Shown: piece after piece, positions 34,990-53,930 of the stretch
Layout: each line of letters starts with the position of its first letter
How positions within the stretch are numbered: position 1 is the first letter of the stretch
Assembly (NCBI GenBank): GCA_963630875.1
Contig: CAVGOI010000006.1
Coordinates: 2,531 to 66,530 of the forward strand
Length of the DNA stretch: 64,000 nt
Source of the DNA: Mycobacteriaceae bacterium
Lineage (GTDB): Bacteria > Bacteroidota > Bacteroidia > Bacteroidales > Paludibacteraceae
Direction: 5' to 3'
Program-made: the position numbers and the translations under genes
The notes under the pieces: generated by a model
Seen by the model: the letters and a program-made list of their open reading frames with translations, nothing else
Databases searched by the model: none
Told to the model about the DNA's origin: nothing

Positions 34990-36318
34990 ATGAAGGATAT
35001 TCAATTTTCCTACGCGAAAGCCGTGAGCGCGGACGCAGTAAGTGCGTACAAAGCCCCAATCGCCCACTGTCAGGAACAGTTGGTACAAGGCACGGGCAAA
35101 GGCAGTGATTTCTTGGGTTGGCTGACCTTGCCCGAAGACATCAAGCCGCAACTTCAAGACATTCAAGCCACAGCCGACCTGCTCCGCCGTGAGTGCGAGG
35201 TCATCGTTTGCATCGGCATAGGCGGCAGTTACTTGGGAGCGAAAGCCGTTATCGATGCACTTTCGAACTCCTTTGCATGGATTGAAAACAAAAAGCCGCT
35301 CATCGTCTATGCGGGACAGAACATCGGCGAGGACTACCTCTACGAGTTGCAGGAACTGCTGAAAGACAAACAATTCGGCCTCATCTGTATATCGAAATCA
35401 GGAACTACGACCGAACCTGCTCTCGCCTTCCGTCTGCTCAAGACGCAGTTGGAGAAGCAGCAGGGCGCAGCGGCGGCGCAAAAACGCATCGTCTGCATTA
35501 CGGACGCCAAGAAGGGAGCATTGCGCACCCTCGCCACGCAGGAGGGGTATAAGACCTTCGTCATCGAAGACAACATCGGCGGACGCTTCTCCGTCCTCTC
35601 GCCGGTGGGACTGCTACCTATCGCCTGCGCAGGGTTTGACATTCACGCCCTCATCGACGGCGCAGCGCGTATGGCAGCGATCTGCGGCATCGACACGCCT
35701 TTTGAGCAGAACCCTGCCGCCCTCTACGCAGCAGCCCGCAACAGCCTCTATTCGGAACAACACAAGAAGATCGAATTATTGGTGAATTTCCATCCCAAAC
35801 TCCACAATGTAAGCGAGTGGTGGAAACAACTCTACGGCGAATCGGAAGGCAAAGAGCATAAGGGGATATTCCCTGCCGGCGTTGACTTTACAACGGATCT
35901 GCACTCTATGGGTCAGTACATACAAGAGGGGGAACGCCATTTGTTCGAGACGGTTATTTCGGTCGAAGAGCCGAACCACAAGGTAGAGTTTCCCTACGAC
36001 GAAGCCAACTTGGACGGACTGAATTTCTTGGCCGGCAAACGCGTGGACGAAGTAAACAAGATGGCGGAACTTGGCACGATGCTGGCACATGTGGACGGCG
36101 GCGTCCCCAATATGAAGGTGACGCTTCCGAGACTTGACGAATATTACCTCGGCGAACTTATCTACTTCTTTGAGCGTGCCTGCGGCCTGTCGGGCTACTT
36201 GTTAGGAGTTAACCCGTTCAACCAACCGGGCGTCGAGGCTTACAAGAAGAACATGTTTGCCCTCCTCGACAAACCCGGCTACGAATCCGAGTCCAAAGCC
36301 CTTAAAGCGAGATTGTAA
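34990..36318 (+). CDS. pgi: Glucose-6-phosphate isomerase
   Basis: 442 aa with [26 protein letters not shown] and the SIS-domain C-terminal motifs. Confidence 0.95.
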
Positions 36319-36335
36319 GTCTCAAATTTATACAC

Positions 36336-36367
36336 AAAAAAGCGGCACCATAATGCCGCTTTTTTTA
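36336..36367. terminator. Bidirectional intrinsic terminator
   Basis: aaaaaa-AGCGGCA-ccataa-TGCCGCT-ttttttt: a 7-bp GC-rich stem flanked by A and T runs, between convergent pgi and the AT-rich gene. Confidence 0.8.
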
Positions 36368-36387
36368 TTGTTAGTATATTTCGAACT

Positions 36388-37470
36388 TTATATTTCGTCA
36401 TCATATAGATTTCTCTTTTTCATGCTATAGTAAGACACAATAATGTAGTACATTATGTCACCACCTTTACTTAATGATTTTTCAAATGATATTGTAATAG
36501 GTCTATATTCGTAATCATCTACAAATGCCCCACATGTACAGAATTTGTCATCTTCTTCATCTGTAAGTACTCTAAAATTAGAGTACTTTCTCTCATATTG
36601 AGATTTTACAGACTCGAAAAACATTAGAGCCTCTTCCTTTTTCCATGAATAAAATGGCTTTTGTAAATAGACCGAAACCAATTTTCCTTGTATAAAATAG
36701 AATGTTGCATACTGGTATGTTGTACCACCTATTTTTGTTTCATAGTAGTGTAACATATGTGAGTCAGAATCTAAAAGTCTATCGCTTTTGAGTCCTATGG
36801 TTCTACGCACTGTTTCCCTATCATCTCCAAACTTAACACCAGCAACTCCATATACTTTATTCTGTTCACAATAATCTGGCAAATTATTAAACTCATCCAC
36901 TAATTGTCTCAGTCCTGAAAAAAGGAGATTATAATACGTATCCTCACTAATGTATGAACAGCCAAATATAGAATCTGAAGAAGATGTCATTACTATTGTA
37001 TGTTCATCATGCCGAGACCATGTTTTAACACCCAAAAATTCTGCACTATCAGTAATTTGTTTAAATAAGAGTGTACTATCAGCAACCTCTAAACTTCCAT
37101 ATTTCTTATTCAATTTTTTTTGCACTATTTTTGTATATTGAATACAATCACCATTGCAACTATCTTGCATTAAGATTGCAAAGAAAGTATCATTCAAAAA
37201 GCTGACACCAATGGCATGAAATGTCTGCCCCTCGTGGTCATAGTCACCCTCGTAGTCGTATCTGGAGAAATGTATTTCATAAGTGTCATCATGGATAATA
37301 CTATCAATACTTTCGTGCAATTTGAAACCTTGTGCGGTTATTGCCTTTTGCACCTCCTCGGTTGTAGATTTACCCAAAGTACATCCGAAAAATGTGTTTT
37401 GAACACTCGTTTCTGCCAACATCGACAGGGTAGAAACCATTACAATGGCAAAAGATAAAAAATATCTCAT
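36388..37470 (-). CDS. Hypothetical secreted protein with two related domains, in an AT-rich islet
   Basis: 360 aa with signal peptide MRYFLSFAIVMVSTLSMLAETS. The two halves share a pattern (FFGCTLGKSTTEEVQKAI... / VYGVAGVKFGDDRETVRRTI..., each followed by an aromatic-rich sheet region and ...KKYG / ...RKYS). A hand count gives G+C of 18/60 at 36421-36480, against 31/60 at 36241-36300. Confidence 0.6.
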   Translation of the reverse strand: MRYFLSFAIVMVSTLSMLAETSVQNTFFGCTLGKSTTEEVQKAITAQGFKLHESIDSIIHDDTYEIHFSRYDYEGDYDHEGQTFHAIGVSFLNDTFFAILMQDSCNGDCIQYTKIVQKKLNKKYGSLEVADSTLLFKQITDSAEFLGVKTWSRHDEHTIVMTSSSDSIFGCSYISEDTYYNLLFSGLRQLVDEFNNLPDYCEQNKVYGVAGVKFGDDRETVRRTIGLKSDRLLDSDSHMLHYYETKIGGTTYQYATFYFIQGKLVSVYLQKPFYSWKKEEALMFFESVKSQYERKYSNFRVLTDEEDDKFCTCGAFVDDYEYRPITISFEKSLSKGGDIMYYIIVSYYSMKKRNLYDDEI

Positions 37471-37555
37471 ATGTATTTGATTTATTATATTTCTACATTA
37501 CAGCGAGCCACCTTGCGCAAGTATATATGGCATCACTACACATCCTTCTCGACTG

Positions 37556-37587
37556 CAAAGATACTGCTTTTCCAAAAAATATGCAAA
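37556..37587 (-). promoter_or_regulatory. Promoter TTTG-N20-TATCTTTG for the AT-rich gene
   Basis: The minus strand reads gtTTGcatattttttggaaaagcagTATCTTTG with a full TTTG at -33. It lies about 85 nt upstream of the ATG at 37470. Confidence 0.6.
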
Positions 37588-37660
37588 CAAAAGCCCATTC
37601 CGCTCGCAAAAAGCAACGACCCGCGAGAGACCCGCGACAAATTCACAATGTCCCCACTCG

Positions 37661-38194
37661 CTATTTGCGCATACGGATGACCCGTGCCGGATTGCCGGCG
37701 ACGATGGCATAATCCGGAACATCATGGGTAACAACCGACCCCGCACCGATAATGCTATGCGCTCCGATGCGTTTGCAGCCCGGCAGGACAATGGCACGCG
37801 CCCCTATCCACACATCACCGCCTATCTCCAAGGGTGTTTGCCGCTCGACTTCCGTTTCAGCCACAGCACCAATCGGCACATCGGGGTCTGCGAAGGAATG
37901 TGCCCCCCCCAGAAACAATACCTCTTCGCCCATCAACAGCCTGTCGTGTATCACCAACGGACGATTGTGGGTACAGAAATCTTTCCCTATGCCGACATGG
38001 TTGCCGACACGGATATTCTTGCCATTGCCGAAGTAGGCACCCTGCTCCACATTCACATCGTTGCCGCACGCCGCAAACAGATGCTTGGCACACCGATAGC
38101 GCAACCGATACGCCACACGCCCCAAGAGCGGTTTCGTGGATTTGGGCAAGTGCCGTGCAAAGGCGTAATACACTATCAACCAAACTGTTCTCAT
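37661..38194 (-). CDS. Hexapeptide-repeat (LbH) O-acetyltransferase (WcaF/maltose acetyltransferase-like)
   Basis: 177 aa with [49 protein letters not shown]-type overlap with fcl. Confidence 0.85.
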
Positions 38195-40322: not shown

Positions 40323-42220
40323 ACCGCCTCCATATTTTTCGCGTTGAACAAGTCTTTGCCCTCGGCGGTGTAGGCGTACTCAATCCGCGCCTTATAGTAC
40401 TCTTCTACCTTTCCGCGCACAATCTTCATTGTGGAATTGACCAAGTGGTTCTGTTCCGTGAACGGCTCCGGCAGCACGGCTATGGCTTTCGGCAGCCACA
40501 TTTCGGGGAACATACCGGCAAACTTCCCGTTCCGATACTCGTCCGCCTCGCTTTGTATCTTCTGCAGCATGGCACGCTTGCCATCCGCCGAAGCAGGGTT
40601 TAGCCCCTTGCCTTTAACCCATTCGCGCAAAGTGTCCTTGTTGGGAACAATCAGCACAATGGTGTAAGGGTCTTGGTTGTTGTGCAGCACGACCTGTTCG
40701 ATGTATTTGCTGCCATCGGTCAGGCTGTCCTCATAGCCTTCGGGGCTGTATTTCTCGCCATCGGAACTGATGAGCAGCGACTTGAAGCGTCCTACGACCC
40801 ACAAGTAGCCCGGGTGGTCCGTACGGATATAGCCCATGTCTCCCGTGTGCAACCAGCCGTCCACAATGGTCTTGGCGGTGGACTCGGGGTTCTTCCAATA
40901 GCCCGCCATCACATTCTCGCCGCGGATAACAATCTCGCCCTTCTGTCCTGCCGGCACTTCCTTGCCCTCTTCGTCGCATATTTTCAAGTCCATCTGCGAA
41001 ACAATCCTCCCGCTCGAACCGAAGATAGCATGTCCTGCGGAGTTGGCACAGATAATCGGTGTGGCTTCGCTCAAGCCGTATCCTTGGAACATCGGCATGC
41101 CCACTGCGCAGAAATACCGCTGCAACTCGATGTCGAGCAGTGCGCCTCCACCGACGAAGAACTTCATACGCCCGCCGAAGCCCTCGCGCACGGAGCGGAA
41201 TATCAGTCGGTCGAACAACTTGACCAACGGCGCACGCCATGCGTCTTTCCCGCCGCGATTCCAGTATTCTTTGTTATAGCGAATGGCATTGTTGAGGGCG
41301 AACCGGTAGAGTTTCTCCACGGTCTTGCCTTTCTGGTGTATGCCGCTTTCGATACTTTTGCGGAAGTTACGCGCCAAAGCCGGCACCGAAAGCATAACCA
41401 TCGGGCGCACTTCCCGAATGGATATGGGTATGTTTTTGAGGGTAGCCATAGCCGTCTTTCCCACCGGCACCGTCGCAATACTTCCGCAGTAGGACATCAT
41501 CGTATAGAAGCCTGCCACATGGGCAAAGCAGTGGTCTAACGGCAGAATGATGAGCATCACATCGTCCGGCTCCACGCCAATGATGGAGCGTGCCTGTTCC
41601 ACATTGGCGGTATAGTTCCTGTGCGTAAGCAGAATGCCTTTCGGGTCAGCCGTCGTACCGGAAGTGTAACTGATATTGGCATAGTCGTCGGGACCTACCG
41701 AGTGGTAGCGTTCCACAAACTTTTCCGGCTCTGCGGCGAGCAGCGCCCGTCCCTTTTCGAAGACCTCCTCAATGCTTATTTCACGGTCTTGGTATTCTTC
41801 GATGGGGTCAAAGACAATCACATATTTCACCTGCGGACACTCGGGAAGAATTTTGCGGATCTTGGGCAGTTGCTGCTCGGAAGTCATGATGTATTGTGCG
41901 TCCGAATGCTGAATGCGGAACAGCAAGTCGCCGGCTTCCGCCAACTTGATACTCAACGGCACATTCACACCGCCCGCGTAGAGGATACCCAACTCGCCCG
42001 TAACCCACAGGTTGCGTCCTTGTGACAGGAGGGCGGCCTTGTCGCCTTTTTTCATCCCCAATGCCATCAAGCCGGCACCGATGATATGGGCTTGTTCACG
42101 CGTTTGGGTATAGGTAGTTTCCGTCCAGACATCGCCTATTTTCTCGCGCAAGAAGACATGGTCGGCATACTGCGCGGTGTATTTTTCGACGAAATCAATA
42201 ATAGTTAATCGCTTGTTCAT
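40319..42220 (-). CDS. Long-chain-fatty-acid--CoA ligase (AMP-dependent synthetase)
   Basis: 633 aa with AMP-binding motif ISYTSGTTADPKGILLTH, YGLSEA, and GWLHTGDMGY...VVGRFKSLL. Confidence 0.85.
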   Translation of the reverse strand: MNKRLTIIDFVEKYTAQYADHVFLREKIGDVWTETTYTQTREQAHIIGAGLMALGMKKGDKAALLSQGRNLWVTGELGILYAGGVNVPLSIKLAEAGDLLFRIQHSDAQYIMTSEQQLPKIRKILPECPQVKYVIVFDPIEEYQDREISIEEVFEKGRALLAAEPEKFVERYHSVGPDDYANISYTSGTTADPKGILLTHRNYTANVEQARSIIGVEPDDVMLIILPLDHCFAHVAGFYTMMSYCGSIATVPVGKTAMATLKNIPISIREVRPMVMLSVPALARNFRKSIESGIHQKGKTVEKLYRFALNNAIRYNKEYWNRGGKDAWRAPLVKLFDRLIFRSVREGFGGRMKFFVGGGALLDIELQRYFCAVGMPMFQGYGLSEATPIICANSAGHAIFGSSGRIVSQMDLKICDEEGKEVPAGQKGEIVIRGENVMAGYWKNPESTAKTIVDGWLHTGDMGYIRTDHPGYLWVVGRFKSLLISSDGEKYSPEGYEDSLTDGSKYIEQVVLHNNQDPYTIVLIVPNKDTLREWVKGKGLNPASADGKRAMLQKIQSEADEYRNGKFAGMFPEMWLPKAIAVLPEPFTEQNHLVNSTMKIVRGKVEEYYKARIEYAYTAEGKDLFNAKNMEAV

Positions 42221-42253
42221 AATTACTCGTTGTAAATTTTACCTTTCGGGCGG

Positions 42254-42285
42254 CAAAGGTACACTTTTTTTGCGAACCCTGCAAA
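42254..42285 (-). promoter_or_regulatory. Promoter TTTG-N20-TACCTTTG for the acyl-CoA ligase operon
   Basis: The minus strand reads ggTTTGcagggttcgcaaaaaaagtgTACCTTTG, 34 nt upstream of the ATG at 42220. Confidence 0.6.
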
Positions 42286-42349
42286 CCTGTTTTTCATCGG
42301 ACTAAATAAAACCGTCCCCCCCCCATCTTAGTACCAAGCCCCAAAATAG

Positions 42350-42477
42350 TCAACCCCCAAACGGGACATAACAATATAGGACAAATCAGCCACTAATCAG
42401 CCACTTATATCCATACCACATCCTTAGCACTACCCTAGCACTACCTTAGCACCTATGACTCTTATATGGGTTTTAGA
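42350..42477. repeat. Promoter-proximal intergenic repeat, copy B (with cccccaaacgggacat head)
   Basis: Positions 42373-42477 align with 18017-18132. The head 42350-42369 (tcaacccccaaacgggacat) matches 48745-48764. Confidence 0.7.
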
Positions 42478-42516
42478 CCTCTTTTGAATGCCCTCTTGAC
42501 CTTTCCTTCCCATCCG

Positions 42517-42576
42517 TCAAAGATGCCTTTTACTATCCCTGTCCTTTCTTCAAAGATGCCTTTTACTATCCCTGTC
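42517..42576. repeat. 33-nt period tandem repeat (2 copies plus a degenerate third)
   Basis: tcaaagatgccttttactatccctgtc occurs at 42517-42543 and again exactly at 42550-42576. A degenerate copy, ccgaagatacccctgtcc, follows. Confidence 0.85.
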
Positions 42577-42640
42577 TTTTTTCCGAAGATACCCCTGTCC
42601 TACGATGCTTATTCTTCCATTGAGGGGTGTAGTATATAGC

Positions 42641-42671
42641 AAGACGCACCGTTGGAGGGGCGGTGCGTCTT
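42641..42671. terminator. Perfect 11-bp hairpin downstream of the ccsBA-like gene (possible terminator)
   Basis: aagacgcaccg-ttggagggg-cggtgcgtctt, 93 nt past the stop at 42764. There is no U-tract on either strand. Confidence 0.35.
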
Positions 42672-42763
42672 CGGGAAACAGCGTAAGGAAGTTTGCGCTA
42701 CTTATTGCCGGTATGTGCGCTACCGATTGCTCGTGTCTGTTCTACCGGCGGTGGGTATGCAGG

Positions 42764-43918
42764 CTACTTGTTGTAGGTGTGCATACTGTATGCGGCAGAG
42801 GGTAGGTAGTTTACGCCATACCAGGTTATCTGCATACTCGCAAAGGTGAACAGTAGCACGACTAAGATATACCAACCTTGTGCGTTGCTTTTGTGTGTCT
42901 TGGCGGGAAACGGTATATGGGTGCCTATGATGGTCAGGAGCCAGGTTACGGCTGCCCAACATTCTTTCGCATCCCACATCCAGTAGTCGCCCCATGCGTC
43001 CTTTGCCCATACCGAACCGCATAACATACCGGTAAGCAACAAGGAAGAGGCTGTGGTAAGCAGGCTCTGCGGCAGTGTCGCCCACCGTCCCTGCAAGGGG
43101 TGGATTAGGTTCCAAACGGCGGCTACCACTCCCAAGGCGAGTAGCGAATAGGCAACCATATAGACCAGAATGTGCGGGAAGAACCAAAGGCTGCGTAGCG
43201 CAGGCATCAGCGTACCGAGTTCCACCCGTGCCAACGAGGCGGCAGAGAAGACAGCCGCCAAGACCAACGACACAGGGAGAACATACCAACTATGCCACGC
43301 ACGGCAAGTCTGTACCAATGCACCCACAACCAGCAGCACAAAGCCGATATAGACTACGGGCAGCCACGGGTCGCGTACTACCTCGATAATGCAGAAATCA
43401 CCCTGTGCACGGTCGTAGTCGGACTGATATATCCACCACCCGTGGTAATGTGCGGGGTGGTTGACTGATGTTTCTACAATATCCCGCCCGTCTATCTCGA
43501 GGGTGGAGGTGTACTGCTTGGGGCTTTTGCCGTCTGCATAGTAGTCGATACGAAAGTCCTGCAAGCGTATCGCCATAGGCAACACAAAGGGGCGTCCCTG
43601 CTCGGTATAGGCCACTCGTTCCGTGGCGTGAGTGTCCACTACAATCTTCACATCGGTTTCGACCACTGCTCCTGCCATGCCGCCGAGCAGTACCGTGAAT
43701 AGCCCAAGGTGGCTCAACGCCGCTGTCCACCGCCTCCGGCGTAGGTCGCCTATGCCGGCCGTGAGCAGTAATATGGCGGCCAGCAGGGCTACCGAGACGA
43801 ACAACCATGAGTGGTAGAGGCGTACTGCCCAAGTACCCTCTATGATCAGTAACAGAACGAGCAGGAGCAGTGTAACTGCCCCTGCCCATCGCAGAATCGT
43901 AGTGCCTTTAGATTGCAT
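42764..43918 (-). CDS. Compact fused cytochrome c synthetase (ResB/CcsB-like N-terminus + CcsA)
   Basis: 384 aa. The N-terminal part has the ResB-type motif RLQDFRIDYYADGKSPKQYTSTLEIDG...VNHPAHYHGWWIYQSDY. The C-terminal part has the CcsA Trp-rich haem-handling motif WGDYWMWDAKECW. Overlaps the upstream di-haem gene by 11 nt. Confidence 0.7.
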   Translation of the reverse strand: MQSKGTTILRWAGAVTLLLLVLLLIIEGTWAVRLYHSWLFVSVALLAAILLLTAGIGDLRRRRWTAALSHLGLFTVLLGGMAGAVVETDVKIVVDTHATERVAYTEQGRPFVLPMAIRLQDFRIDYYADGKSPKQYTSTLEIDGRDIVETSVNHPAHYHGWWIYQSDYDRAQGDFCIIEVVRDPWLPVVYIGFVLLVVGALVQTCRAWHSWYVLPVSLVLAAVFSAASLARVELGTLMPALRSLWFFPHILVYMVAYSLLALGVVAAVWNLIHPLQGRWATLPQSLLTTASSLLLTGMLCGSVWAKDAWGDYWMWDAKECWAAVTWLLTIIGTHIPFPAKTHKSNAQGWYILVVLLFTFASMQITWYGVNYLPSAAYSMHTYNK

Positions 43919-45572
43919 TGATAAACGCTACTAATGCATCCCTGTCCTTTTTGGTCAGGTTGTAGAATTTCTTTACAGACTCCAAGGCGTCGCTCTCTTC
44001 GCTATAGCCATGCCACATGATTGCTTCGACGGTCGTACGGGCACGCGTATCGTGCAGGCGTGCTTCGTAGGCGTCGCCCGTGATTTTCTTGTGCAGTCCG
44101 CGTCCCCAGAGCGGTGTGGTGCGGCACCAACCCGTACGGATGTCCTTCTCCATGCAGAGTTTGTGCTGTACGAAGTCGGTATATGGCCAAATGGTTTGAT
44201 AAGGGTAGCGCGGCATATCGCTGTTGCGCTTGAAGAACTTGTTCGGGTCTTGAATATGGTCTGCACCCGTTGTCCACGACGGACGGTGGCACTCTGCACA
44301 ACCTATCTGCGTAAATAACTCGCGCCCACGCAGTACATTCTCGTCGTGTACATTACGCACTGCGGGTACGGCTAAGCCGCGGTGCCATACCATGAAGTCG
44401 GCGTATTCGTCGTCGGTCATCTCAACCGGCAGGTCGGTGCAGGTCAGGTAGTTGTAGATGTTCTGCTCCACATCGTCGGTGAACCAGTCTGCATGCTCGT
44501 GGTTGGGGTCAATCTTCTCGATGTAGGCGGGGAAACCGGCTTGTACTTCGGGGTCCTTCGACGAGATGGTAGCATAGTTGGTGCCTGCCAAGTCGAGATA
44601 GTGGTAGCGACGGTCGGAACGCGTTACATTGGTGATGTTCCAAATGGCGTTCGCACCTGCGGCATCCAACAACGGACCACGCGACATGGCATAGGTATAG
44701 CGGCGCACATACTTCGTGCCGTCCCCTTGTTTCGAGTTGGAGTAATAGGCACCGTCTTTCCAGTTGCCGCCCTCGAACCAAGCCGACTTCCAGTGCTTGA
44801 TATAGCCTTTGTTGTATGCCTGCTCCTCCTTTGCCCACTGTGCGGTAATGGAGTCGTCGGGAATGGCATCGGTAAGCCCCGTACCATACACACCGATGGT
44901 GTTCTCGAGGCGTACCTCGTAGTTGCCGAGGTCTAACAGTTCGTGTCCATAGACTGCGTCCTCGGGCATATTGACGGTCGGGTAGCGCAACTCAAAGGTC
45001 TCGCCGTCCTCGAACGCCATTTTGTTGTTGCTGGCAGCGCAGGTATTGACCGTATGCCATGTGACGGTTATCTTGCTTTCGTCAATCGGTGCTTTGAATG
45101 GCGCAACGGCATGCAGTTGGGGCATACCGGCTACCCAAGTCTTGTAGTTCTCCGTCGAAGGATCGAAGATAACGAGAAGTGTTCCGTTGCCGATCTCCTG
45201 TGTGTTGTAAGTGCCTTCTTCTACTGATTTACCATGTCCGTAACCCGGGTGGCAGTGCAAACACGAAGAGCGCACATAGACAGGACCCAAGCCGCCACGC
45301 GTACCCGTGGCGTTGCTCATAAACTGTTTCTCGAAGAGGGCTTCGCCCGCCTTGAACGACTCTAACCAGTTGCCGTTGTCGATAGAGGGTGTCGGTTGCT
45401 CGTACGCATTCGAGGCGGAAACAAACGATGTACCGAGTTGTCCGCCCGCATAGTACCAATCCGGCAGTTCCGTGTCCTTGTCGGTCGGTTCGTTGTTGTT
45501 ACTGTTGGTACGGCAACTTGCCAGCGCGATTACGCTGACAAGCATGCCTACCATTAGATATGATTTCTTCAT
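43908..45572 (-). CDS. Di-haem cytochrome c lipoprotein (DUF1111 / putative peroxidase-thiol oxidoreductase family)
   Basis: 554 aa with lipobox IALASC and two CxxCH motifs (SSCLHCHPG and GCAECHRPS). Confidence 0.8.
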   Translation of the reverse strand: MKKSYLMVGMLVSVIALASCRTNSNNNEPTDKDTELPDWYYAGGQLGTSFVSASNAYEQPTPSIDNGNWLESFKAGEALFEKQFMSNATGTRGGLGPVYVRSSCLHCHPGYGHGKSVEEGTYNTQEIGNGTLLVIFDPSTENYKTWVAGMPQLHAVAPFKAPIDESKITVTWHTVNTCAASNNKMAFEDGETFELRYPTVNMPEDAVYGHELLDLGNYEVRLENTIGVYGTGLTDAIPDDSITAQWAKEEQAYNKGYIKHWKSAWFEGGNWKDGAYYSNSKQGDGTKYVRRYTYAMSRGPLLDAAGANAIWNITNVTRSDRRYHYLDLAGTNYATISSKDPEVQAGFPAYIEKIDPNHEHADWFTDDVEQNIYNYLTCTDLPVEMTDDEYADFMVWHRGLAVPAVRNVHDENVLRGRELFTQIGCAECHRPSWTTGADHIQDPNKFFKRNSDMPRYPYQTIWPYTDFVQHKLCMEKDIRTGWCRTTPLWGRGLHKKITGDAYEARLHDTRARTTVEAIMWHGYSEESDALESVKKFYNLTKKDRDALVAFINAI

Positions 45573-45599
45573 ACTAATGAGATTATTATGTGTTTTTGT

Positions 45600-46793
45600 T
45601 TAGTCTTGTGCACTCAATTTGGCATTTACCTTCTCGAGTACAGTAACGAGGTCTGTTCCTACTACCTCTACTGCCTTGGTGGCTGCTTCGCCTTTGGCAT
45701 TGGCATCGAGTGCAAACGGCTCTGCTATCTTACCGATGGCCTCAATGGCGTTCGTAATAGCCGTACGGCACTCCGTATCCAGCGAAGCATCCACGGACTT
45801 GATATAGTCGGAGATAGAAGCATCGCCCGAGTTGCTGCCGCAATATGCGTTTTGGATAGAACGGATATTGTCTTGGAAATCCTCAATCGAGTTGAGCGCG
45901 TACGGACTCTCGATATAGTTGCGGTCTTCGGCAGAGGTAGCACTGTTCGGACGACCAATCTTGGTGTTTCCTACCTCGTCGGCAATGTCGATGCAGCCTT
46001 GGATAACCTCTTCGGCAGCCTCTTGGTAAGTAGAGTAGGTACCACCGGTAGCCACTTTCATGTACGAGCCGTAGCCCTTAACGAACTCTACACCGTAGTC
46101 AATCTCAGCCTCTTCGAGAATGGTTTGTTTCTCCTCGCTGATATTGTCCACACCAGCCCAAGAAGCCTCGAGCGCAACGGTCTGGTTGCGCAAGTCCTCT
46201 GCCACTGCCACGAGATAGACCAATTCTGCACGGGTGTAGGTGGTAATATCGTGGGTGCGGACATTGCTTTTATCTGCATTGTCGGTAGCGTAGAGCATGT
46301 ACTCGATAGCGTGGAACCCAAGTAGACCATAGCCGAGTTTCGTGCCTACATAGTCTGCACCCTGCTCTTCGATTTGCTTCATCTGCTCCTCATTGCCGAG
46401 CATAGCGTCCATACCGTCTTTGTCGAGAGGCCATGAGTCGATATGCGGGTCAATGTTGTGGTTGGCTGCGGGACCGTAGAGGAATGCCTCGCTCAACTCC
46501 CAATAACGACGAGCGGTTGTCCACGAGGTAGCGGCTGCCTGTACATCGGCATCGGTCAATGTTTTTGCCTCAAACTTGGTGAATATGTTCTCGCAGTTCT
46601 CATAGAGCGTAACGGTTGCGTCCGAGAGGCTCTTATAGGTCGGAATGACCGTGTTGTCCACATACGGAGTCATGGCTGCCTTAAGGGCTTGCTCTTTGGG
46701 CGAATCAACATCTGAATTGTTCTTGTTCTCGCACGATGCGAGACCGAGAGTGGCTACTGAAAGTAGCGTTGCGTAAAAGAAAATCTTTTTCAT
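45600..46793 (-). CDS. Imelysin-like (peptidase M75 / IrpA-EfeO-like) lipoprotein
   Basis: 397 aa with lipobox LGLASC. Imelysin GxHxxE motif (LLGFHAIEYMLY) and the second conserved block (YIESPYALNSIEDFQDN). Confidence 0.8.
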   Translation of the reverse strand: MKKIFFYATLLSVATLGLASCENKNNSDVDSPKEQALKAAMTPYVDNTVIPTYKSLSDATVTLYENCENIFTKFEAKTLTDADVQAAATSWTTARRYWELSEAFLYGPAANHNIDPHIDSWPLDKDGMDAMLGNEEQMKQIEEQGADYVGTKLGYGLLGFHAIEYMLYATDNADKSNVRTHDITTYTRAELVYLVAVAEDLRNQTVALEASWAGVDNISEEKQTILEEAEIDYGVEFVKGYGSYMKVATGGTYSTYQEAAEEVIQGCIDIADEVGNTKIGRPNSATSAEDRNYIESPYALNSIEDFQDNIRSIQNAYCGSNSGDASISDYIKSVDASLDTECRTAITNAIEAIGKIAEPFALDANAKGEAATKAVEVVGTDLVTVLEKVNAKLSAQD

Positions 46794-46914
46794 TATGTAT
46801 TGTAAATTATTATTGTTGCTTTGTGGGGCTATCCGTTCGCTATCCCTTGCGTATGGGTTGCTTATCCCTTGCTGCAGAGGAAAGAAACGATAGTACTTGA
46901 ATGGTTAATCTGTT

Positions 46915-46976
46915 TTAGTTATAGTTCGAAGAAGCCGCTGTAGGGAATTAGTTATAGTTCGAAGAAACCGCTGTAG
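46915..46976. repeat. Tandem duplication (33-nt period) of the 3' end of the porin-like gene
   Basis: ttagttatagttcgaagaagccgctgtag (46915-43) against ttagttatagttcgaagaaaccgctgtag (46948-76), one mismatch. The second copy encodes the real C-terminus ...YSGFFEL*. Confidence 0.85.
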
Positions 46977-48424
46977 TTGATGCTCAACGCAATATACGGC
47001 TCGTTGTTGTATTTCGTGTCGGAGTGGGGGTTTTGGTTCAGAATACCGTAGCCAAACTCACCTTTGACCACTATCTGCGGGATAGGGAAATAGTTGAAGC
47101 CGCACGACACTTTCTGCCGCCCCGTCCAATAACTGCGGGTCGATGCGACTTTGGCCTGTGCATCATAGATGTCGTAGCGCGCAAAGAGGTAGAACTGCTG
47201 TTGCTTATCACGCAGGGTCTTGCTCAACGAGAAGAAGTCGTATCCTATCTCCGCCCCCACGCTATAGGCATCGCTCGCTACGGCTTGGCGCTTGGAGACG
47301 GAGGTCTTGGGCATAGACATATTGTAGGCGGTAATTTTGTCGGCGTCCGAGAGGTGTCCGTAGAGCGCAGAGCCGCGGAAAATCACGCCGTGCCCCTTGT
47401 AGCGCCAATCGAATGCCCCGAGGCTGACAAGCCCGTACACACCTTTGTATTTGCTCGAGTTGGTCGGTTGCAGATTGTTGTGGAACGAAGTACCGGTATA
47501 GCCGCTCAAGGAGAGACGCAGTGCATCCGAACCTTTCTTATTAAGCGGGTAGAAATCGAGGCGTACCAAACCCGCATAGCAGTTGGCGAGTTTGAACTCG
47601 TAGGAAGATGCCGAGCCGTATTGTATCCAATTCTTCTTGCCGAAAAGGGCACTCTCAAGTCCGGGAAGGAACTGCGCCGTGTATCCGAGCCACTTGTAGC
47701 GACCATGGAACTGCAATCCCACATCGTGCCAAGTGCAAGGGATAATGGTGTTATCACCCTCGGGACGATAGACACCGAAGAATTGGTCAGGTTCGTGGTG
47801 GGCATTGGTGCCTCCGAGAGGAACGATAATCATACCCGCACGAATGTTGGCGTAGGGGTTGAACGACTTTTGGAGCCAGAACTGCTCGAGTGCGACCTCG
47901 CCGCCACGCTCAACCTCGGTTTCATACTCGCCGCCCTCTTCGTCCTCTATCTCTACGGCTGCTTCCGTACCGCCGTGTTCGAACTCAATCTCCGAGCCCA
48001 TCGACCAGCCTTTGCCGAAATCGTAGCCCATATAGACTACCACATGCGGGAGATCGAACTCGCCGTATTGGTCGTCCTTGTAGGTGTCGGGGGAGGTGTA
48101 GCGCAGGTAGTTGTTGGAGTAAAAGCAGCGTTTCATAGCCGCCTCGCCGTAGCCGCCTATTGTGAAGCGGTGTTTGCGCTCGGTCTTTACAGGGGTTACA
48201 TTGGCATCCGGTGCTACTTGTTGTGCTCCCGTACTCGCCATTTGTTGGGATGGCTCTGCTTCTTTCTGCGCTGCGCATCGTGCATTGGCGGTTGTGCCTT
48301 GCTCGAGACGCTCCACGCGTTCGATAAGTGCTTTGAGGTCTGCTTGTGAGACGAGAATGGAGTCCTCGGCATGCAGGACAAGTGTCCCCGCCAGCAGACA
48401 AAGCGTGTAAATATATCTTTTCAT
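46952..48424 (-). CDS. Putative outer-membrane porin/beta-barrel protein
   Basis: 490 aa with a signal peptide, an N-terminal coiled segment (DLKALIERVERLEQ), then a Gly/aromatic-rich alternating pattern. It is the first gene of the imelysin cluster. Confidence 0.5.
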   Translation of the reverse strand: MKRYIYTLCLLAGTLVLHAEDSILVSQADLKALIERVERLEQGTTANARCAAQKEAEPSQQMASTGAQQVAPDANVTPVKTERKHRFTIGGYGEAAMKRCFYSNNYLRYTSPDTYKDDQYGEFDLPHVVVYMGYDFGKGWSMGSEIEFEHGGTEAAVEIEDEEGGEYETEVERGGEVALEQFWLQKSFNPYANIRAGMIIVPLGGTNAHHEPDQFFGVYRPEGDNTIIPCTWHDVGLQFHGRYKWLGYTAQFLPGLESALFGKKNWIQYGSASSYEFKLANCYAGLVRLDFYPLNKKGSDALRLSLSGYTGTSFHNNLQPTNSSKYKGVYGLVSLGAFDWRYKGHGVIFRGSALYGHLSDADKITAYNMSMPKTSVSKRQAVASDAYSVGAEIGYDFFSLSKTLRDKQQQFYLFARYDIYDAQAKVASTRSYWTGRQKVSCGFNYFPIPQIVVKGEFGYGILNQNPHSDTKYNNEPYIALSINYSGFFEL

Positions 48425-48665
48425 ACTAATACCTTATTTACCATTGCTGTTTGAGAAATTGGGGATATGAACTGTTTGGCTATGCCGGTTGTCTGTCGCG
48501 ACACACTATCCGCATGGCTAATTGTCTCCGGCGAGACTCCTGTGCCTTGCGCGGGCGGTTCTGTGCTGTTTGTAATGGGGAGTACCATGTGATGGTTTTC
48601 GTCGCCTCAGAACCGCCGCAGCAAGACTGTGTACAATTCAATAAACCTTCTTTCAAAAAACAGTG

Positions 48666-48696
48666 CAAAGGTACTGCCTTTTCGTTCCCTCCGCAA
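48666..48696 (-). promoter_or_regulatory. Promoter TTG-N20-TACCTTTG for the porin-imelysin-dihaem-ccsBA cluster
   Basis: The minus strand reads gaTTGcggagggaacgaaaaggcagTACCTTTG. It lies about 240 nt upstream of the ATG at 48424. Confidence 0.5.
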
Positions 48697-48744
48697 TCCC
48701 GCATAGTGGGTAAACTCCTATCCCTATTTTTGGCGATAGTCTTG

Positions 48745-48830
48745 GTCACCCCCAAACGGGACATGACCACATGCAGGATTCCTACTACTAACTCCCGATC
48801 ATATCCGACACATAACCGACACATATTCGA
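48745..48830. repeat. Promoter-proximal intergenic repeat, diverged copy C
   Basis: gtcacccccaaacgggacatgaccacatgcagga... then atatccgacacataaccgacacat. It parallels the layout of 42350-42420 (tcaacccccaaacgggacataacaatatagga...atatccataccacatcc). Confidence 0.5.
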
Positions 48831-48995
48831 ATCAACTTCGCAGGAATATCGATACGATTTCGCAAGCATTTCCTGCCTGTTGCATCGCACGCTACTCGGA
48901 CCTACCTTTTTCCATCCCACATTTGCCCATCCCAAAAGAAAAGTATAATTTCGCAGCGTAAAATCGTTTAGCCAACCCGCAAACAGCCTCTATAT

Positions 48996-50573
48996 ATGTT
49001 GTATCGAACGCTTTCCTCCCTTCGCGCCACCAACGCCATGACCGACAAACAGTTGCGACACACCGCTACGCACCACCGCAACAGCCTGTACCTGCTGCTT
49101 GTGCTTTTGTGCTTGTCCGCCTGCGCATCCTCTGCCTCGCCAACAACGGAGGAACCGACTTACACGGTCGCAATCAGTCAGGTGGGCGATGAAGCGTGGT
49201 TCCAAAAGATGGACGCGGAAATGCGTCAGGAAGCCCTCTTTCATCCGGAACTACGCCTTGTCTTCCGCAATGCACATTACAACTACGACCTACAGTGCCG
49301 GCAAATAGATTCGTTCATTGCGGAAAGGGTTGACCTGCTGATTGTAGGTCCCAATGACATCCCCAAACTCTGTGAAGCGTCCAATCGAGCCTACGATGCC
49401 GGTATTCCAGTGGTTCTGACAGCCAACTACAACATCGGGGAGAAATACAACGCATTTGTCTGTATGTCTAACTACGACATAGGGTCTACCATCGCCGACT
49501 ATCTGGGCAAGGTGGCAGGCATGGAGAACTGCACACCACAACACCCACTACAAGTTATCGAAGTCATCGGACCGCGATACATTCTTCCTACGGAACTGCG
49601 CAGTCAAGGGCTGCACGAGCGACTGTGCCATTATCCGGCAGTGAAAGTCGTAGCCACCTGCGCCGCCGGTTGGCACCGTCAGGAAGCCCACGAAAAGGTC
49701 GATTCGCTGTTGGCATTGTATCCAGGGGTAAGGGCAATAGCCGCGCAAAACGACGAGATGGCAATAGGAGCAGCCGAGGCGTGCAAAGGGACTCCGCACC
49801 CCGTGCATATCACGGGCGTAGATGCCATGACGGGCAAAGGCGCGGGCATCGAAGCCATTCTAAATCGGGAAATAGAAGCGTCCGTCATGAGTACAAGTCG
49901 CGGAGATTTGGTCATCCGTACGGCAGCGGACATTCTCAACAACCGTCCCTACGAAGCACAGCAATACCTGCCTGTGGTTTTGGTAGAGGAATCGTCGCCC
50001 CAACTGATGTTGCGCCTGTCGGAAGACATCAACAGCAGTCAGGACGCCATCAAGACCTTGCAGAAACACATGGACAACTCGCAACTGACGAAGAGTTCAC
50101 GACTTGGTATTATTTTACTATCGGTTTTTCTATTGGCAGCCGTCCTCACAGCGGCTTGGTTTGTATTCCGCAATGTGCAGCACAATCGGAGGCGGGTACA
50201 AGAACGCTTGGATATGCTCACGGAGGAACTGGCAAAGAACACGGCGGCATCTTCACTCAACGAGCAGTTTGTGCAGAAACTGCAATCGTACATTGAACTC
50301 CATTTGGCGGACACTCACCTAACGGTCGAACAGTTACAGAAACACCTGGGTGTCAGCCGCACACAATTGTTCCGCAAGACAAAAGAAACCTTGGGAACAA
50401 CGCCCATCGACCTGATACGGCATATCCGTCTTCACCGCGCGCAGCAAATGCTCAAGACCACCGATCTAACCATTCAGGAAATAGCCTACTCGGTGGGATT
50501 TACCTCTCCCTCATATTTTACCAAGTGTTACCGTGCGGAATTCGGAGAAAGTCCGAACAAGCAACGCACCTGA
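48996..50573 (+). CDS. Membrane-spanning regulator: periplasmic sugar-binding (PBP type 1) domain - TM - AraC-family HTH
   Basis: 525 aa. N-terminal signal/anchor with LLCLSAC, a periplasmic-binding-protein-like domain of about 300 aa (YTVAISQVGDEAWFQKM..., AQNDEMAIGAAEA), a TM helix LGIILLSVFLLAAVLTAAWFVF, and a C-terminal AraC HTH (IQEIAYSVGFTSPSYFTKCYRAEFGESP). Confidence 0.8.
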   Translation: MLYRTLSSLRATNAMTDKQLRHTATHHRNSLYLLLVLLCLSACASSASPTTEEPTYTVAISQVGDEAWFQKMDAEMRQEALFHPELRLVFRNAHYNYDLQCRQIDSFIAERVDLLIVGPNDIPKLCEASNRAYDAGIPVVLTANYNIGEKYNAFVCMSNYDIGSTIADYLGKVAGMENCTPQHPLQVIEVIGPRYILPTELRSQGLHERLCHYPAVKVVATCAAGWHRQEAHEKVDSLLALYPGVRAIAAQNDEMAIGAAEACKGTPHPVHITGVDAMTGKGAGIEAILNREIEASVMSTSRGDLVIRTAADILNNRPYEAQQYLPVVLVEESSPQLMLRLSEDINSSQDAIKTLQKHMDNSQLTKSSRLGIILLSVFLLAAVLTAAWFVFRNVQHNRRRVQERLDMLTEELAKNTAASSLNEQFVQKLQSYIELHLADTHLTVEQLQKHLGVSRTQLFRKTKETLGTTPIDLIRHIRLHRAQQMLKTTDLTIQEIAYSVGFTSPSYFTKCYRAEFGESPNKQRT

Positions 50574-50752
50574 TACAGCCGCACACCCTACCTGCTTTAA
50601 CGCCCACCACCTGCCATAGCGGCATACAGCACCTACCATAGCCGCATTACGATACATCGTGTAGCGGCATACGACACCGCTACGCACCACCTCCCCACCT
50701 TCCAAAAACCGCAGTTTGTATTATTATACTACTGTTTGGTACGATTGTTATA

Positions 50753-50781
50753 GGGGGGGGGTATTTTTTATAGTACTTTTG
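50753..50781 (+). promoter_or_regulatory. -7 box TACTTTTG (50774-50781) preceded by a G9 tract (50753-50761)
   Basis: tag-ggggggggg-tattttttatagTACTTTTGcagcg. The -7 box is 24 nt upstream of the susC-like ATG at 50805. Confidence 0.5.
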
Positions 50782-50804
50782 CAGCGTCTTTTAACATCAG
50801 TACT

Positions 50805-53800
50805 ATGAAGAAAAAAGTCTTACTTACATGTTTCATTGCAACGGTTGCCATAGTAGTGTCGGCTCAAGGTTTTACCATCACAGGTAAGGTCGTGGACGCT
50901 GCAACGAATGAACCGTTAATAGGAGTGAGTGTTTCCAACGCAAAATCGTATGCGGGGACCATCACGGATTACACCGGTGCATTCTCTTTGCAAGCCGACA
51001 AAGGGGATGTACTGCAATTCTTCTATGTCGGCTACCGCAGCGACAGCCTTCGCGTCAGCAGCAGCCAAAGTATCGTGATACGCTTGGCGGAAGAGGTACA
51101 GCAAATCGATGAGGTCGTCGTAGTCGGTGCGGCTATGAAGAAGTCCGACCTTACCGGTGCGATAGGCAGCGTCAGTGCCGAAGAACTGACTGACATACCT
51201 ACGGTGAACCTCAACCAAGCATTGCAAGGAAAAGTAGCGGGCGTATTTGTAGTAAGCAGTCCGCAACCCGGCACCAACGCATCCATCAAAATTCGTGGTA
51301 ACAACTCTATCTCATACGGCACGAACCCGCTCTATGTGATAGACAATATTATGATTGACGGCTCTGACATCTCTACCATCAATCCGAACGACATTGCCAG
51401 TATCGAAGTGCTGAAAGATGCCAGTGCTACCGCATTGTACGGTGCGCGTGCAGCAAACGGTGTCATCGTCATCACAACCAAAAAGGGACAGAAAGGCAAA
51501 GGAAAAGTAACCTACGACGGCTGGGTAGGTTGGAAGAACTTTGCCAATACGGTACCGACGATGAGCGGAAGAGAGGTATGGGATTTCCGTGTAAACGCCT
51601 TTATCAACGGCGAAATGGACACTTTCCGAGAGAAAAACCCGGGCAAAGACGAGGAGTACTTCCAGAATTACCGCGACTACTATATCAACCGGTATCTTGT
51701 TTGCGGCAGTTCACAAAGCGAAAAGTATTCCGATCCGAGGTTCATAGACACCAACAAGGCTTTTATGGACTGGGAGATTGCTGCCTACGAGGCCAATCAG
51801 ACCTACAACTGGGTGGACGCTATCGCACAACAGGGCTTCTCACAGAACCACAATCTCACCTTTTCGGGGGCTACAGATGCAGCCAACTACTATCTTTCGT
51901 TTGGCCTCTCGGATGAGAAAGGACAAATCAAGAAAACCGACTATCGCCGTTACAACGGTAAGGTGAACTTGGACTTCAAGGTAAACAAGTGGCTGAAAGT
52001 CGGCACCAACAATTCGTTGGCATTCTCCCAGTCGAACCCGTTGGTACAGGACAACATGTACTTGCTGGCATTTCGGGCAAACCCGCTGTTCCCGATTACA
52101 AGCGACGAGTATTACATGTGGGATGGCAAGTTGGAGAGTCAAGCCTTCCACAACCCGTTGCGCTCGTTGGAAACAGTAACCAAAGATGTGGACAAGTTCC
52201 GCTTTCTCACTTCCGATTACATCAACATCAACCCCGTAAAAGGATTGGATATCCGTTCCACCTTCTCGTTTGATTTTGCGCAGCAGGAAAACAACACCTA
52301 CTATGGTGTAGAGAGTACGGAGTGCCACGGCAGCAACACAGCAGGGCAAGCCACACAATACCGCACGCGTTCCATGAACTGGCAGTGGGACAACACCGTT
52401 TCTTACAACACAACGATACGAGAAAAGCACCGCATCGGGGCGATGGCAGGTATGAACATGTCCTACCACAGCGATAACTACAACACCATAACAGCCTTGG
52501 ATTTCGGCAACGACTTGTTCACCTACAAGAGCATACAAAGTGCTACCGACAAAGAGCATTCTTCCTTCTATTCAGGCTACACCTCCTATTCACTGATGTC
52601 TGCCTATTTGCGGCTCAATTATGTATATGACTCACGCTACTATGTTACCCTTACCGGTCGTGCGGATGGCAGTAGCAAATTCAGCCAAAACAACAAGTGG
52701 GGGTATTTCCCGTCTGTGGCTTTAAGTTGGAACATAACAGGCGAGCAATTCATGAAAGACCAGCATGCGGTTGATAACCTCCGCCTGCGCTTGGGCTACG
52801 GATTAGTCGGCAACCAGAATATCCCGAACTATAGTTACTACACCTTATTCTCACCGACTACCACATTGGACAGTTACATCTTGCGAAACAGCGGCGTTTA
52901 CGGGAATCCCAATTTGAAATGGGAAACGCAGAAGCAAGCAAACATCGGTCTTGATATGGGCTTTTGGCACAATCGCATAGATATGACCTTGGACTACTTC
53001 TATACACGGAATGAGGACTTGCTCATGCAACGCAGTTTGGCGTCTTCCTATGGCTATTCATACATGATAGACAATGTAGGTTGTCTGGAAAACCAGGGGG
53101 TGGAGTTCACTTTCAATTTGGAAGCCATCCAAACCAAGGATTGGAATTGGAACATCGGTTTCAACCTCTCGCACGATAAGAACAAAATTATCTCGCTCTA
53201 CGACAATGTGGATGCCATCTATAGTTCCTCAGGTACTTCTATTAACCGTTACGGTAATTTATTCGTCGGTCAGCCGCTGAACAACATCTATGTATATGAG
53301 TTTGACCATATCATGCAGGATACGCCCGAAGACTGGGAGTATGTGAACAGCATGGACTTCGGTGGTACAACGGTTATGCCGGGGGATATCATTCCGAAAG
53401 ACCGCAACGGCGACGGAAAAATCAGTGATGCAGACAAATATGTCTATGGCAAAACCGACCCGATTATCTACGGCGCATTACAAACCGACTTGAGTTGGAA
53501 AGGTATTACCCTGCAGGTGATATGCAACTATTCCTATGGCGCACACAAGGTAAGTTCCCTGTATGAAAGTCTGATGTCCTCCACCGGTACATCCGCTACG
53601 CACACAGACAATCTGAACAGTTGGTCGCCCACCAACACCAATACCAACATACCCCGCGCTTACTATACGACCTCCGGAAAGAGCCGTTATTCATTGAGTT
53701 CCGTGGATTTGGGCATTCAAGATGCTTCGTTTTTCAAGTTGTCGGCGGTAACGCTGTCGTATGATTTCCCGCGCACTTGGATGAACAAGATACACTTCGA

Positions 53801-53930
53801 CCATATCCGCGTTTACTTCACGGGCAACAACTTGGCTTGCGCCACCAAATACAAGGGCTACGACCCGGAAAGCGGCGATGACTATCCGTCATCCCGCACC
53901 TATGTCGTAGGCTTAAACATCGGATTCTAA
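50805..53930 (+). CDS. SusC/RagA-family TonB-dependent outer membrane transporter
   Basis: 1041 aa. Signal peptide, CarboxypepD_reg domain (FTITGKVVDAATNEPLIGVSVS), plug domain (IEVLKDASATALYGARAANGVIVITTKKG), and C-terminus ...VVGLNIGF. Confidence 0.95.
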   Translation: MKKKVLLTCFIATVAIVVSAQGFTITGKVVDAATNEPLIGVSVSNAKSYAGTITDYTGAFSLQADKGDVLQFFYVGYRSDSLRVSSSQSIVIRLAEEVQQIDEVVVVGAAMKKSDLTGAIGSVSAEELTDIPTVNLNQALQGKVAGVFVVSSPQPGTNASIKIRGNNSISYGTNPLYVIDNIMIDGSDISTINPNDIASIEVLKDASATALYGARAANGVIVITTKKGQKGKGKVTYDGWVGWKNFANTVPTMSGREVWDFRVNAFINGEMDTFREKNPGKDEEYFQNYRDYYINRYLVCGSSQSEKYSDPRFIDTNKAFMDWEIAAYEANQTYNWVDAIAQQGFSQNHNLTFSGATDAANYYLSFGLSDEKGQIKKTDYRRYNGKVNLDFKVNKWLKVGTNNSLAFSQSNPLVQDNMYLLAFRANPLFPITSDEYYMWDGKLESQAFHNPLRSLETVTKDVDKFRFLTSDYININPVKGLDIRSTFSFDFAQQENNTYYGVESTECHGSNTAGQATQYRTRSMNWQWDNTVSYNTTIREKHRIGAMAGMNMSYHSDNYNTITALDFGNDLFTYKSIQSATDKEHSSFYSGYTSYSLMSAYLRLNYVYDSRYYVTLTGRADGSSKFSQNNKWGYFPSVALSWNITGEQFMKDQHAVDNLRLRLGYGLVGNQNIPNYSYYTLFSPTTTLDSYILRNSGVYGNPNLKWETQKQANIGLDMGFWHNRIDMTLDYFYTRNEDLLMQRSLASSYGYSYMIDNVGCLENQGVEFTFNLEAIQTKDWNWNIGFNLSHDKNKIISLYDNVDAIYSSSGTSINRYGNLFVGQPLNNIYVYEFDHIMQDTPEDWEYVNSMDFGGTTVMPGDIIPKDRNGDGKISDADKYVYGKTDPIIYGALQTDLSWKGITLQVICNYSYGAHKVSSLYESLMSSTGTSATHTDNLNSWSPTNTNTNIPRAYYTTSGKSRYSLSSVDLGIQDASFFKLSAVTLSYDFPRTWMNKIHFDHIRVYFTGNNLACATKYKGYDPESGDDYPSSRTYVVGLNIGF

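Follow-up and report, generated by a model that had tools for sequence, protein, structure and literature searches.

The window analyzed here is a 64,000-nucleotide stretch of DNA from the draft genome of a gut member of the Bacteroidales (family Paludibacteraceae; assembly GCA_963630875.1, contig CAVGOI010000006.1, positions 2,531 to 66,530). On its minus strand, four co-directional genes identified by open reading frame (ORF) calling encode, in this order, an outer membrane protein (OMP), an imelysin, a di-haem protein of the DHOR/DUF1111 family, and a 384-aa fusion of ResB and CcsA domains (42764-43918; i.e., a compact CcsBA). This fusion protein is likely to be a working but much reduced System II cytochrome c synthetase and the sole haem-attachment enzyme of the organism, with DHOR as its proposed substrate. 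All coordinates below are on the minus strand of the window unless stated otherwise.

Domains, conserved residues, and fold of the compact CcsBA

Pfam profiles matched both parts of the protein above the curated cut-offs (ResB, PF05140, residues 62 to 171, E = 1.1e-20; Cytochrom_C_asm, PF01578, residues 208 to 372, E = 1.2e-18). The ResB and CcsA fusion proposed in a first-pass annotation, made from the sequence of the window alone, was therefore correct. In a phmmer search against proteins of solved structure, only the CcsBAs of Bacteroides thetaiotaomicron (25vk) and Helicobacter hepaticus (7s9y/7s9z) were matched. An AF2 model built from the alignment of homologues (pLDDT 86; pTM 0.80) contains nine long helices plus a single domain rich in beta structure (residues 88 to 182). 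Foldseek placed 7s9y and 7s9z at the top of its ranking for this 384-aa model (probability 1.0; TMq 0.69), and VIA-align aligned 360 of the 384 residues with 7s9y (Z = 20.7; rmsd 4.0 Å), whereas unrelated structures all scored Z < 10.

The CcsB/ResB-like half (residues 1 to 208; 43295-43918) consists of three transmembrane (TM) helices, a beta-cap, and a fourth TM helix, according to the helix boundaries of the model. Its membrane histidine, H70 (43709-43711), aligns with the conserved histidine of the B. thetaiotaomicron enzyme (LIFHG) and with that of the large CcsBAs of Bacteroidales. The periplasmic beta-cap (residues 88 to 182; 43373-43657), delimited by the beta strands of the model, holds the plug-loop residues F122 and Y127 as well as the ResB motif VNHP...YQS; a motif check located the ResB-segment motif VNHPAHYHGWWIYQSDY at residues 152 to 168. 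The CcsA core (residues 209 to 384; 42767-43294), with five TM helices, was delineated by alignment to the H. hepaticus enzyme. In this alignment, P-His1 (H249; 43172-43174) corresponds to H761, the CcsA-side membrane histidine (H334; 42917-42919) to H858, P-His2 (H380; 42779-42781) to H897, and Y382 to Y899. The gate tryptophan and the WWD motif lie together at 42962-43012, where W304 and W309 align with W828 and W833; the motif itself, WGDYWMWDAKE, occupies residues 309 to 319, with W309 to D316 aligned to WGRYWGWD. In the beta-cap, F122 and Y127 align with F240 and Y245 of H. hepaticus, residues named in PMC10663686. Published work on the H. hepaticus and B. thetaiotaomicron enzymes (including PMC10663686) assigns to the aligned residues the roles of haem ligand, gate, or plug.

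Across 30 homologues sharing 45 to 90% identity, the residues H70, H249, H334, H380, W304, W309, G310, W313, W315, D316, Y382, F122, and Y127 are invariant. The first-pass annotation had reasoned that loss of the conserved haem-ligand histidines would speak against a synthetase; all four are present and belong to this invariant set. Its suggestion that this very compact fusion would make an attractive minimal CcsBA is likewise upheld. With the N terminus inside and the C terminus outside, the membrane histidines would be located at the cytoplasmic ends of their helices, while the beta-cap, P-His1, the WWD motif, and P-His2 would all be periplasmic. An arginine-rich loop (residues 60 to 63) is cytoplasmic in the predicted topology, in agreement with the positive-inside rule.

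The window protein has only 41 to 46% of the length of the structurally characterized enzymes of H. hepaticus (936 aa; PDB 7S9Y/7S9Z) and B. thetaiotaomicron (828 aa; PDB 25VK). It has in common with them an N-terminal CcsB fused to a C-terminal CcsA, both histidine pairs, the WWD motif, the gate tryptophan, the tyrosine after P-His2, and the plug loop of the beta-cap. In contrast, about 400 central residues of these enzymes (approximately 323 to 735 in H. hepaticus and 220 to 614 in B. thetaiotaomicron) have no counterpart in it, and the gap relative to the 641- to 742-aa CcsBAs of Bacteroidales covers the same approximately 360 alignment columns. Nine TM helices are predicted, versus 13 reported for the B. 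thetaiotaomicron enzyme. Fused CcsBAs are described as carrying a second periplasmic domain in their central part, with two helices between it and the first domain (literature including PMC10663686); this domain and its flanking TM helices were not found in the window protein, and the missing part appears to comprise this domain together with about four TM helices. The features listed as universal in a 2023 review (i.e., core helices, WWD, both histidine pairs, and beta-cap; PMC10663686) are all retained. The compact architecture is a new, uncharacterized variant of a well-known enzyme: in the open-access literature we found enzymes of 828 to 936 aa only and no description of a compact CcsBA, which is not proof that there is none.

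The compact family and the synthetase genes of other Bacteroidales

The compact family yielded 781 matches in the protein database, of which the best 120 all contain both domains (352 to 450 aa). A pattern scan restricted to one genome per species recovered 288 relatives, nearly all from metagenome-assembled genomes of uncultured gut Bacteroidales. Gene contexts were counted for the best 80 of these 288 loci, each from the genome of a different species. DHOR lies directly upstream of the compact gene in 10 of the 80 loci, which form one clade; a protein of about 450 aa with three CxxCH motifs (a tri-haem CCP) is encoded directly downstream in 28; and no cytochrome gene was found within 6 kb in the remaining 42. 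Contig look-ups of compact-family matches returned the same three contexts.

In a maximum-likelihood tree of the CcsA core (100 rows), the window protein groups with other fused compact proteins in a clade of 81 members (SH-aLRT 99), in which the 11 DHOR-linked ones form a single subclade (SH-aLRT 99). The nearest outgroups are split small CcsA genes. The large CcsBAs linked to DHOR make up a clade of their own on a long branch (SH-aLRT 100). The split pairs of other Bacteroidales (ResB, 244 to 404 aa; CcsA, 255 to 307 aa) are, by the CcsA-core tree and by identity (36 to 48%), the nearest relatives of the compact family. They carry the same signature motifs and likewise adjoin a cytochrome gene, being found beside a tri-haem peroxidase (Haem_bd plus CCP_MauG; the tri-haem CCP) or after nrfHA, but they consist of two genes, and each half has about 60 to 110 extra N-terminal residues that are absent from the fusion. 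Since a synthetase gene adjoins a cytochrome gene in several such arrangements, this placement is a general habit of the order.

We cross-referenced the coordinates of DHOR and CcsBA matches in 301 evenly sampled Bacteroidales genomes and fetched the loci. DHOR was present in 28 of these genomes. The order OMP-imelysin-DHOR-CcsBA recurs in six of them (G119, G002, G020, G124, G244, and G255), with a CcsBA of 681 to 742 aa, and an expanded variant of the cluster occurs in three more (G259, G140, and G161), with a CcsBA of 641 to 654 aa. Like the window enzyme, these large CcsBAs are encoded directly downstream of DHOR in the same four-gene cluster and apparently have the same task; they differ in belonging to a separate CcsA-core clade (31 to 34% identity to the window protein) and in retaining the central region of about 360 residues. 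The first-pass annotation had taken a dedicated, very compact synthetase in such a cluster as a hint that the cytochrome needs a private maturation route. A CcsBA downstream of imelysin and DHOR is not special to this genome, because the arrangement is conserved in Bacteroidales, normally with a full-size enzyme. Both NrfA and CCP are absent in four of five cluster genomes tested (four with a large CcsBA, plus G044, described below).

In the expanded variant (L062:4604-13890 in G259, L063 in G140, and L064 in G161), a Porin_O_P protein of about 455 aa and a protein of about 241 aa with one CxxCH and no Pfam family are encoded between DHOR and the CcsBA. A further ORF of 379 to 402 aa adjoins the CcsBA gene; it lies between the mono-haem gene and the CcsBA gene in G161 and just beyond the CcsBA gene in G259 and G140.

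A separate observation concerns the membrane histidines, both of which are said in the 2023 review to be present in all CcsBA proteins (PMC10663686). Asparagine and phenylalanine replace them in two DHOR-linked CcsBAs of 681 to 682 aa (L059:5800-7845 in G124 and L060:7463-9511 in G244), and two divergent ResB plus CcsA fusions of 327 to 342 aa (L071:6611-7594 in G294 and L072:5753-6781 in G043) have Cys/Arg and Tyr/Pro at these positions. All four retain P-His1, P-His2, and the WWD motif. Instead of exporting haem, such proteins may acquire it on the periplasmic side, as would be fitting for haem auxotrophs.

Two members of the genus of the window organism bear on the origin of the compact gene. 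In G044, a 377-aa CcsBA gene directly follows DHOR (L053:7951-9084); its product has the WWD motif and the full set of four histidines, matches both Pfam domains, and lacks the same alignment columns as the window protein, yet it falls within the large-CcsBA clade. A single origin of all CcsBAs of about 380 aa was rejected, with the one-clade constraint costing 104.7 log-likelihood units (approximately unbiased [AU] test, P = 6.8e-10); this test used a careful tree of 38 rows that left out two very long branches, and the constrained group had been named after the first tree was seen. The G044 protein thus descends from the large type, independently of the family of the window protein. In G181, the closest sampled congener, the OMP, imelysin, and DHOR are 81 to 86% identical to those of the window (L054, G181:C1). 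Searches with tblastn and blastn detected neither a CcsBA gene downstream of DHOR nor a remnant of the compact gene there, and a 697-aa CcsBA is encoded on another contig (L055:5850-7943, G181:C12). With the arrangements in the window, G044, and G181, one genus thus holds three solutions, and the same central module was lost at least twice. Such independent losses beside DHOR, at least two in one genus, would point to a relaxed requirement when a cell has a single, simple substrate. The compact gene of the window would either have displaced a large one in situ or have arrived after its loss.

Two further contigs (L074 and L082) carry the cluster at 82 to 98% identity under the titles "Dialister sp. 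CAG:486" and "Firmicutes bacterium CAG:95." Their content is clearly that of Bacteroidales, and these bin labels are probably wrong.

Haem attachment in the genome and competing explanations

The genome is a 2.2-Mb draft in 97 contigs (97.3% complete). The first-pass annotation had proposed to look for a second ccsBA; PF01578 and PF05140 searches of the draft genome returned one match each, both to the compact gene, and thus no second ResB or CcsA gene. System I was not found in the draft genome either, PF01578, which also covers CcmC and CcmF, having matched only this gene. Profile searches of the whole genome identified one DHOR, inside which the sole Cytochrom_C-like signal lies, and searches with PF00034, PF03150, and PF02335 revealed no NrfA, no CCP/MauG, and no further Cytochrom_C. 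A six-frame census gave 127 ORFs with CxxCH, including 28 non-shadow candidates, nine of which were inspected: six encode ordinary proteins (an M49 peptidase, a 5'-nucleotidase, a DUF5074 protein, a rubredoxin/FMN-binding protein, MetRS, and Cas1), and three are frames rich in Arg, His, and Leu, without a family, that are most likely noncoding. A gene for a thiol reductant of the DsbD/CcdA type is present elsewhere in the genome. With one synthetase gene and one recognizable c-type cytochrome, the enzyme is dedicated in effect, rather than forming an additional private pathway. The "private route" proposed in the first-pass annotation thus holds as far as the tight coupling to the DHOR gene is concerned but not in its assumption of a general system beside it, the compact enzyme being the sole synthetase.

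Ferrochelatase (PF00762) was not found in the 97.3%-complete draft, and the organism is probably a haem auxotroph that imports its haem. It nonetheless keeps a synthetase of the haem-exporting type, with both membrane histidines.

Several points weigh against a functional synthetase that serves as the only one of the organism. The protein scores far below the cut-off of the NCBIfam CcsB equivalog TIGR03144 (69.9 versus 187.6 bits). It lacks the periplasmic chamber that is believed to control how substrates gain access to fused CcsBAs, and would have to be active without it. Given the missing ferrochelatase and the probable import of haem, the need for a channel carrying haem from the cytoplasm to the periplasm is not self-evident. 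A second synthetase or cytochrome could sit in unassembled sequence of the 97-contig draft. Finally, about half of the compact family is encoded away from any cytochrome gene, so that this linkage is not general to the family.

An alternative is a protein that has lost synthetase activity and only handles or exports haem in the manner of CcmC, that works as a haem reductase of the membrane, or that is decaying, with haem attached to DHOR spontaneously or by another factor. The absence of about 400 residues, among them those of the second periplasmic domain, and the subthreshold NCBIfam score would fit such a protein, as would the VIA-align neighbors that rank below CcsBA, which include CcmC (Z = 9.8) and the haem-binding reductases STEAP and cytochrome b561 (Z = 8 to 9, within the range common for helical bundles). 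However, the residues for ligation and capping (F122/Y127, the W304 gate, the P-His pair, and Y382) do not vary within the family, for which matches exist in 288 species genomes; a CxxCH protein (DHOR or tri-haem CCP) accompanies the compact gene in 38 of 80 loci, and the genome contains no other candidate lyase. We therefore regard a loss of activity as improbable. We attach just as little weight to the idea that the compact protein is one subunit whose missing TM helices and periplasmic domain are supplied in trans by an unrecognized protein. System II does exist naturally as split CcsB and CcsA, and split pairs are the closest outgroups of the compact family, but no second ResB- or CcsA-like ORF was found in the genome, and no extra neighbor of the compact gene is conserved across the three context types.

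Least probable, and very much so, is an extra private route, in which a general maturation system exists and the compact enzyme is needed because DHOR cannot use it. Substrate-dedicated System II synthetases are known elsewhere (e.g., NrfI of Wolinella), and the synthetase gene of the window lies within the cluster and shares 11 nt with the cytochrome gene; against this, PF01578 and PF05140 matched nothing else in the draft genome, where neither System I nor any further c-type cytochrome was recognized.

We thus favor a compact, functional synthetase as the only haem-attachment enzyme. For the broader proposition that an enzyme of about 380 residues is fully competent as both haem exporter and synthetase, with the second domain, its chamber, and about four helices dispensable, the balance tips only slightly in favor. 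In the mechanism that we propose, Sec would export the DHOR apoprotein in the form of a lipoprotein precursor. In the inner leaflet, H70 and H334 of the compact synthetase would bind haem between them, and the haem would move via a channel in the core helices to the WWD site in the periplasm, with H249 and H380 as its ligands beneath the beta-cap (F122/Y127). The enzyme would then attach haem to both CxxCH motifs of DHOR, and the 11-nt overlap of the two genes would tie its synthesis to that of its substrate. Together with the products of the imelysin and OMP genes, mature DHOR would take part in a redox process of the envelope that is probably linked to iron. In this lineage, the compact-family gene occupies the site of the 641- to 742-aa CcsBA of other Bacteroidales.

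The cluster, its other members, and its surroundings

The first gene of the cluster encodes the porin-like OMP (490 aa, with a signal peptide; 46952-48424), followed by the imelysin-like lipoprotein (397 aa; 45600-46793), the di-haem DHOR/DUF1111 lipoprotein (554 aa; 43908-45572), and the synthetase. The genes are separated by 158 nt and 27 nt and, at the last junction, overlap by 11 nt (atgcaatctaa; 43908-43918), where the start of the synthetase gene precedes the stop of DHOR. The same small overlap occurs in 8 of 10 related loci (L073 to L077, L079, L080, and L082), and the two genes may be translationally coupled through it.

The OMP had no Pfam match. Its language-model features resemble clusters of Porin_O_P-type porins, a lead from a feature search only, and it is co-conserved upstream of imelysin in nine other Bacteroidales genomes (34 to 81% identity). 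The imelysin (PF09375, Peptidase_M75, E = 1.8e-49) has the lipobox LASC with Cys21 and the GxHxxE motif GFHAIE at residues 159 to 164 (46302-46319). It matches the PDB entries 3n8u (B. ovatus PIBO) and 4ecg, the latter over its full length, and is, as judged from these sequence matches, of the canonical, non-permuted type. DHOR (PF06537, E = 2.4e-34, 119 bits versus a cut-off of 22) likewise has a LASC lipobox, with Cys20, and carries the haem motifs CLHCH (residues 104 to 108; 45249-45263) and CAECH (residues 425 to 429; 44286-44300). Sequence searches of the PDB with DHOR and with the OMP returned no solved relative. The four-gene cluster, its 11-nt overlap, and all quoted motifs (i.e., GFHAIE, CLHCH, CAECH, VNHPAHYHGWWIYQSDY, and WGDYWMWDAKE) had been described in the first-pass annotation and were borne out, and the Pfam profiles that it had suggested for a check (Peptidase_M75, DHOR, ResB, and Cytochrom_C_asm) all scored above their curated cut-offs.

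The pairing of imelysin with DUF1111 and its link to Fur-regulated iron uptake were reported by Xu et al. in 2011 (PMC3143127). The operons described there (P. aeruginosa PA4370-4373 and B. ovatus PIBO) likewise combine a GxHxxE imelysin lipoprotein with a DUF1111 di-haem protein, whereas the cluster of the window adds a porin-like OMP and a synthetase; the words "biogenesis," "ResB," "CcsA," and "porin" do not occur in that text. By analogy with these systems (PMC3143127), the cluster probably has a role in iron.

The genes flanking the cluster appear unrelated to it. An AMP-binding enzyme is encoded 543 nt downstream, and on the other side, a 525-aa regulator with a periplasmic-binding domain and an AraC helix-turn-helix and a 1,041-aa SusC-like TonB-dependent receptor diverge from the cluster (48996-53930, plus strand), probably representing a separate polysaccharide-utilization locus. 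The intervening 570-nt intergenic region is unusually long and contains one match (TACCTTTG; 48666-48673, minus strand) to the Bacteroides -7 promoter motif TAnnTTTG, approximately 240 nt upstream of the OMP start; with about 0.14 such matches expected by chance, it serves as a lead only. Scans of 42000-49200 for sigma-70-type promoters and terminators gave site counts no higher than in shuffles, and an Rfam scan of the same region gave no match at E ≤ 0.1. Elsewhere in the window, the G+C content falls to 0.415 at 36001-38000, compared with about 0.52 to 0.55 in the surroundings.

System II has been studied in enzymes of 828 to 936 residues, for which it is at issue how far the periplasmic chamber is required for capping, for release, and for the access of substrates (PMC10663686, PMC13645880). 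A 384-residue version found in nature, which retains all the residues known to matter and whose compact form has arisen twice, allows the essential parts to be tested for directly. For structure determination and reconstitution, it offers a much smaller target, and its practical value is that of a natural minimal enzyme for probing what the chamber does. The imelysin/DUF1111 clusters of Bacteroidales come with a porin-like OMP and a haem-attachment enzyme of their own. In several small genomes, the cluster seems to be the only reason to keep cytochrome c biogenesis, which argues for an important role at the envelope of these gut anaerobes, probably one in iron or redox handling.

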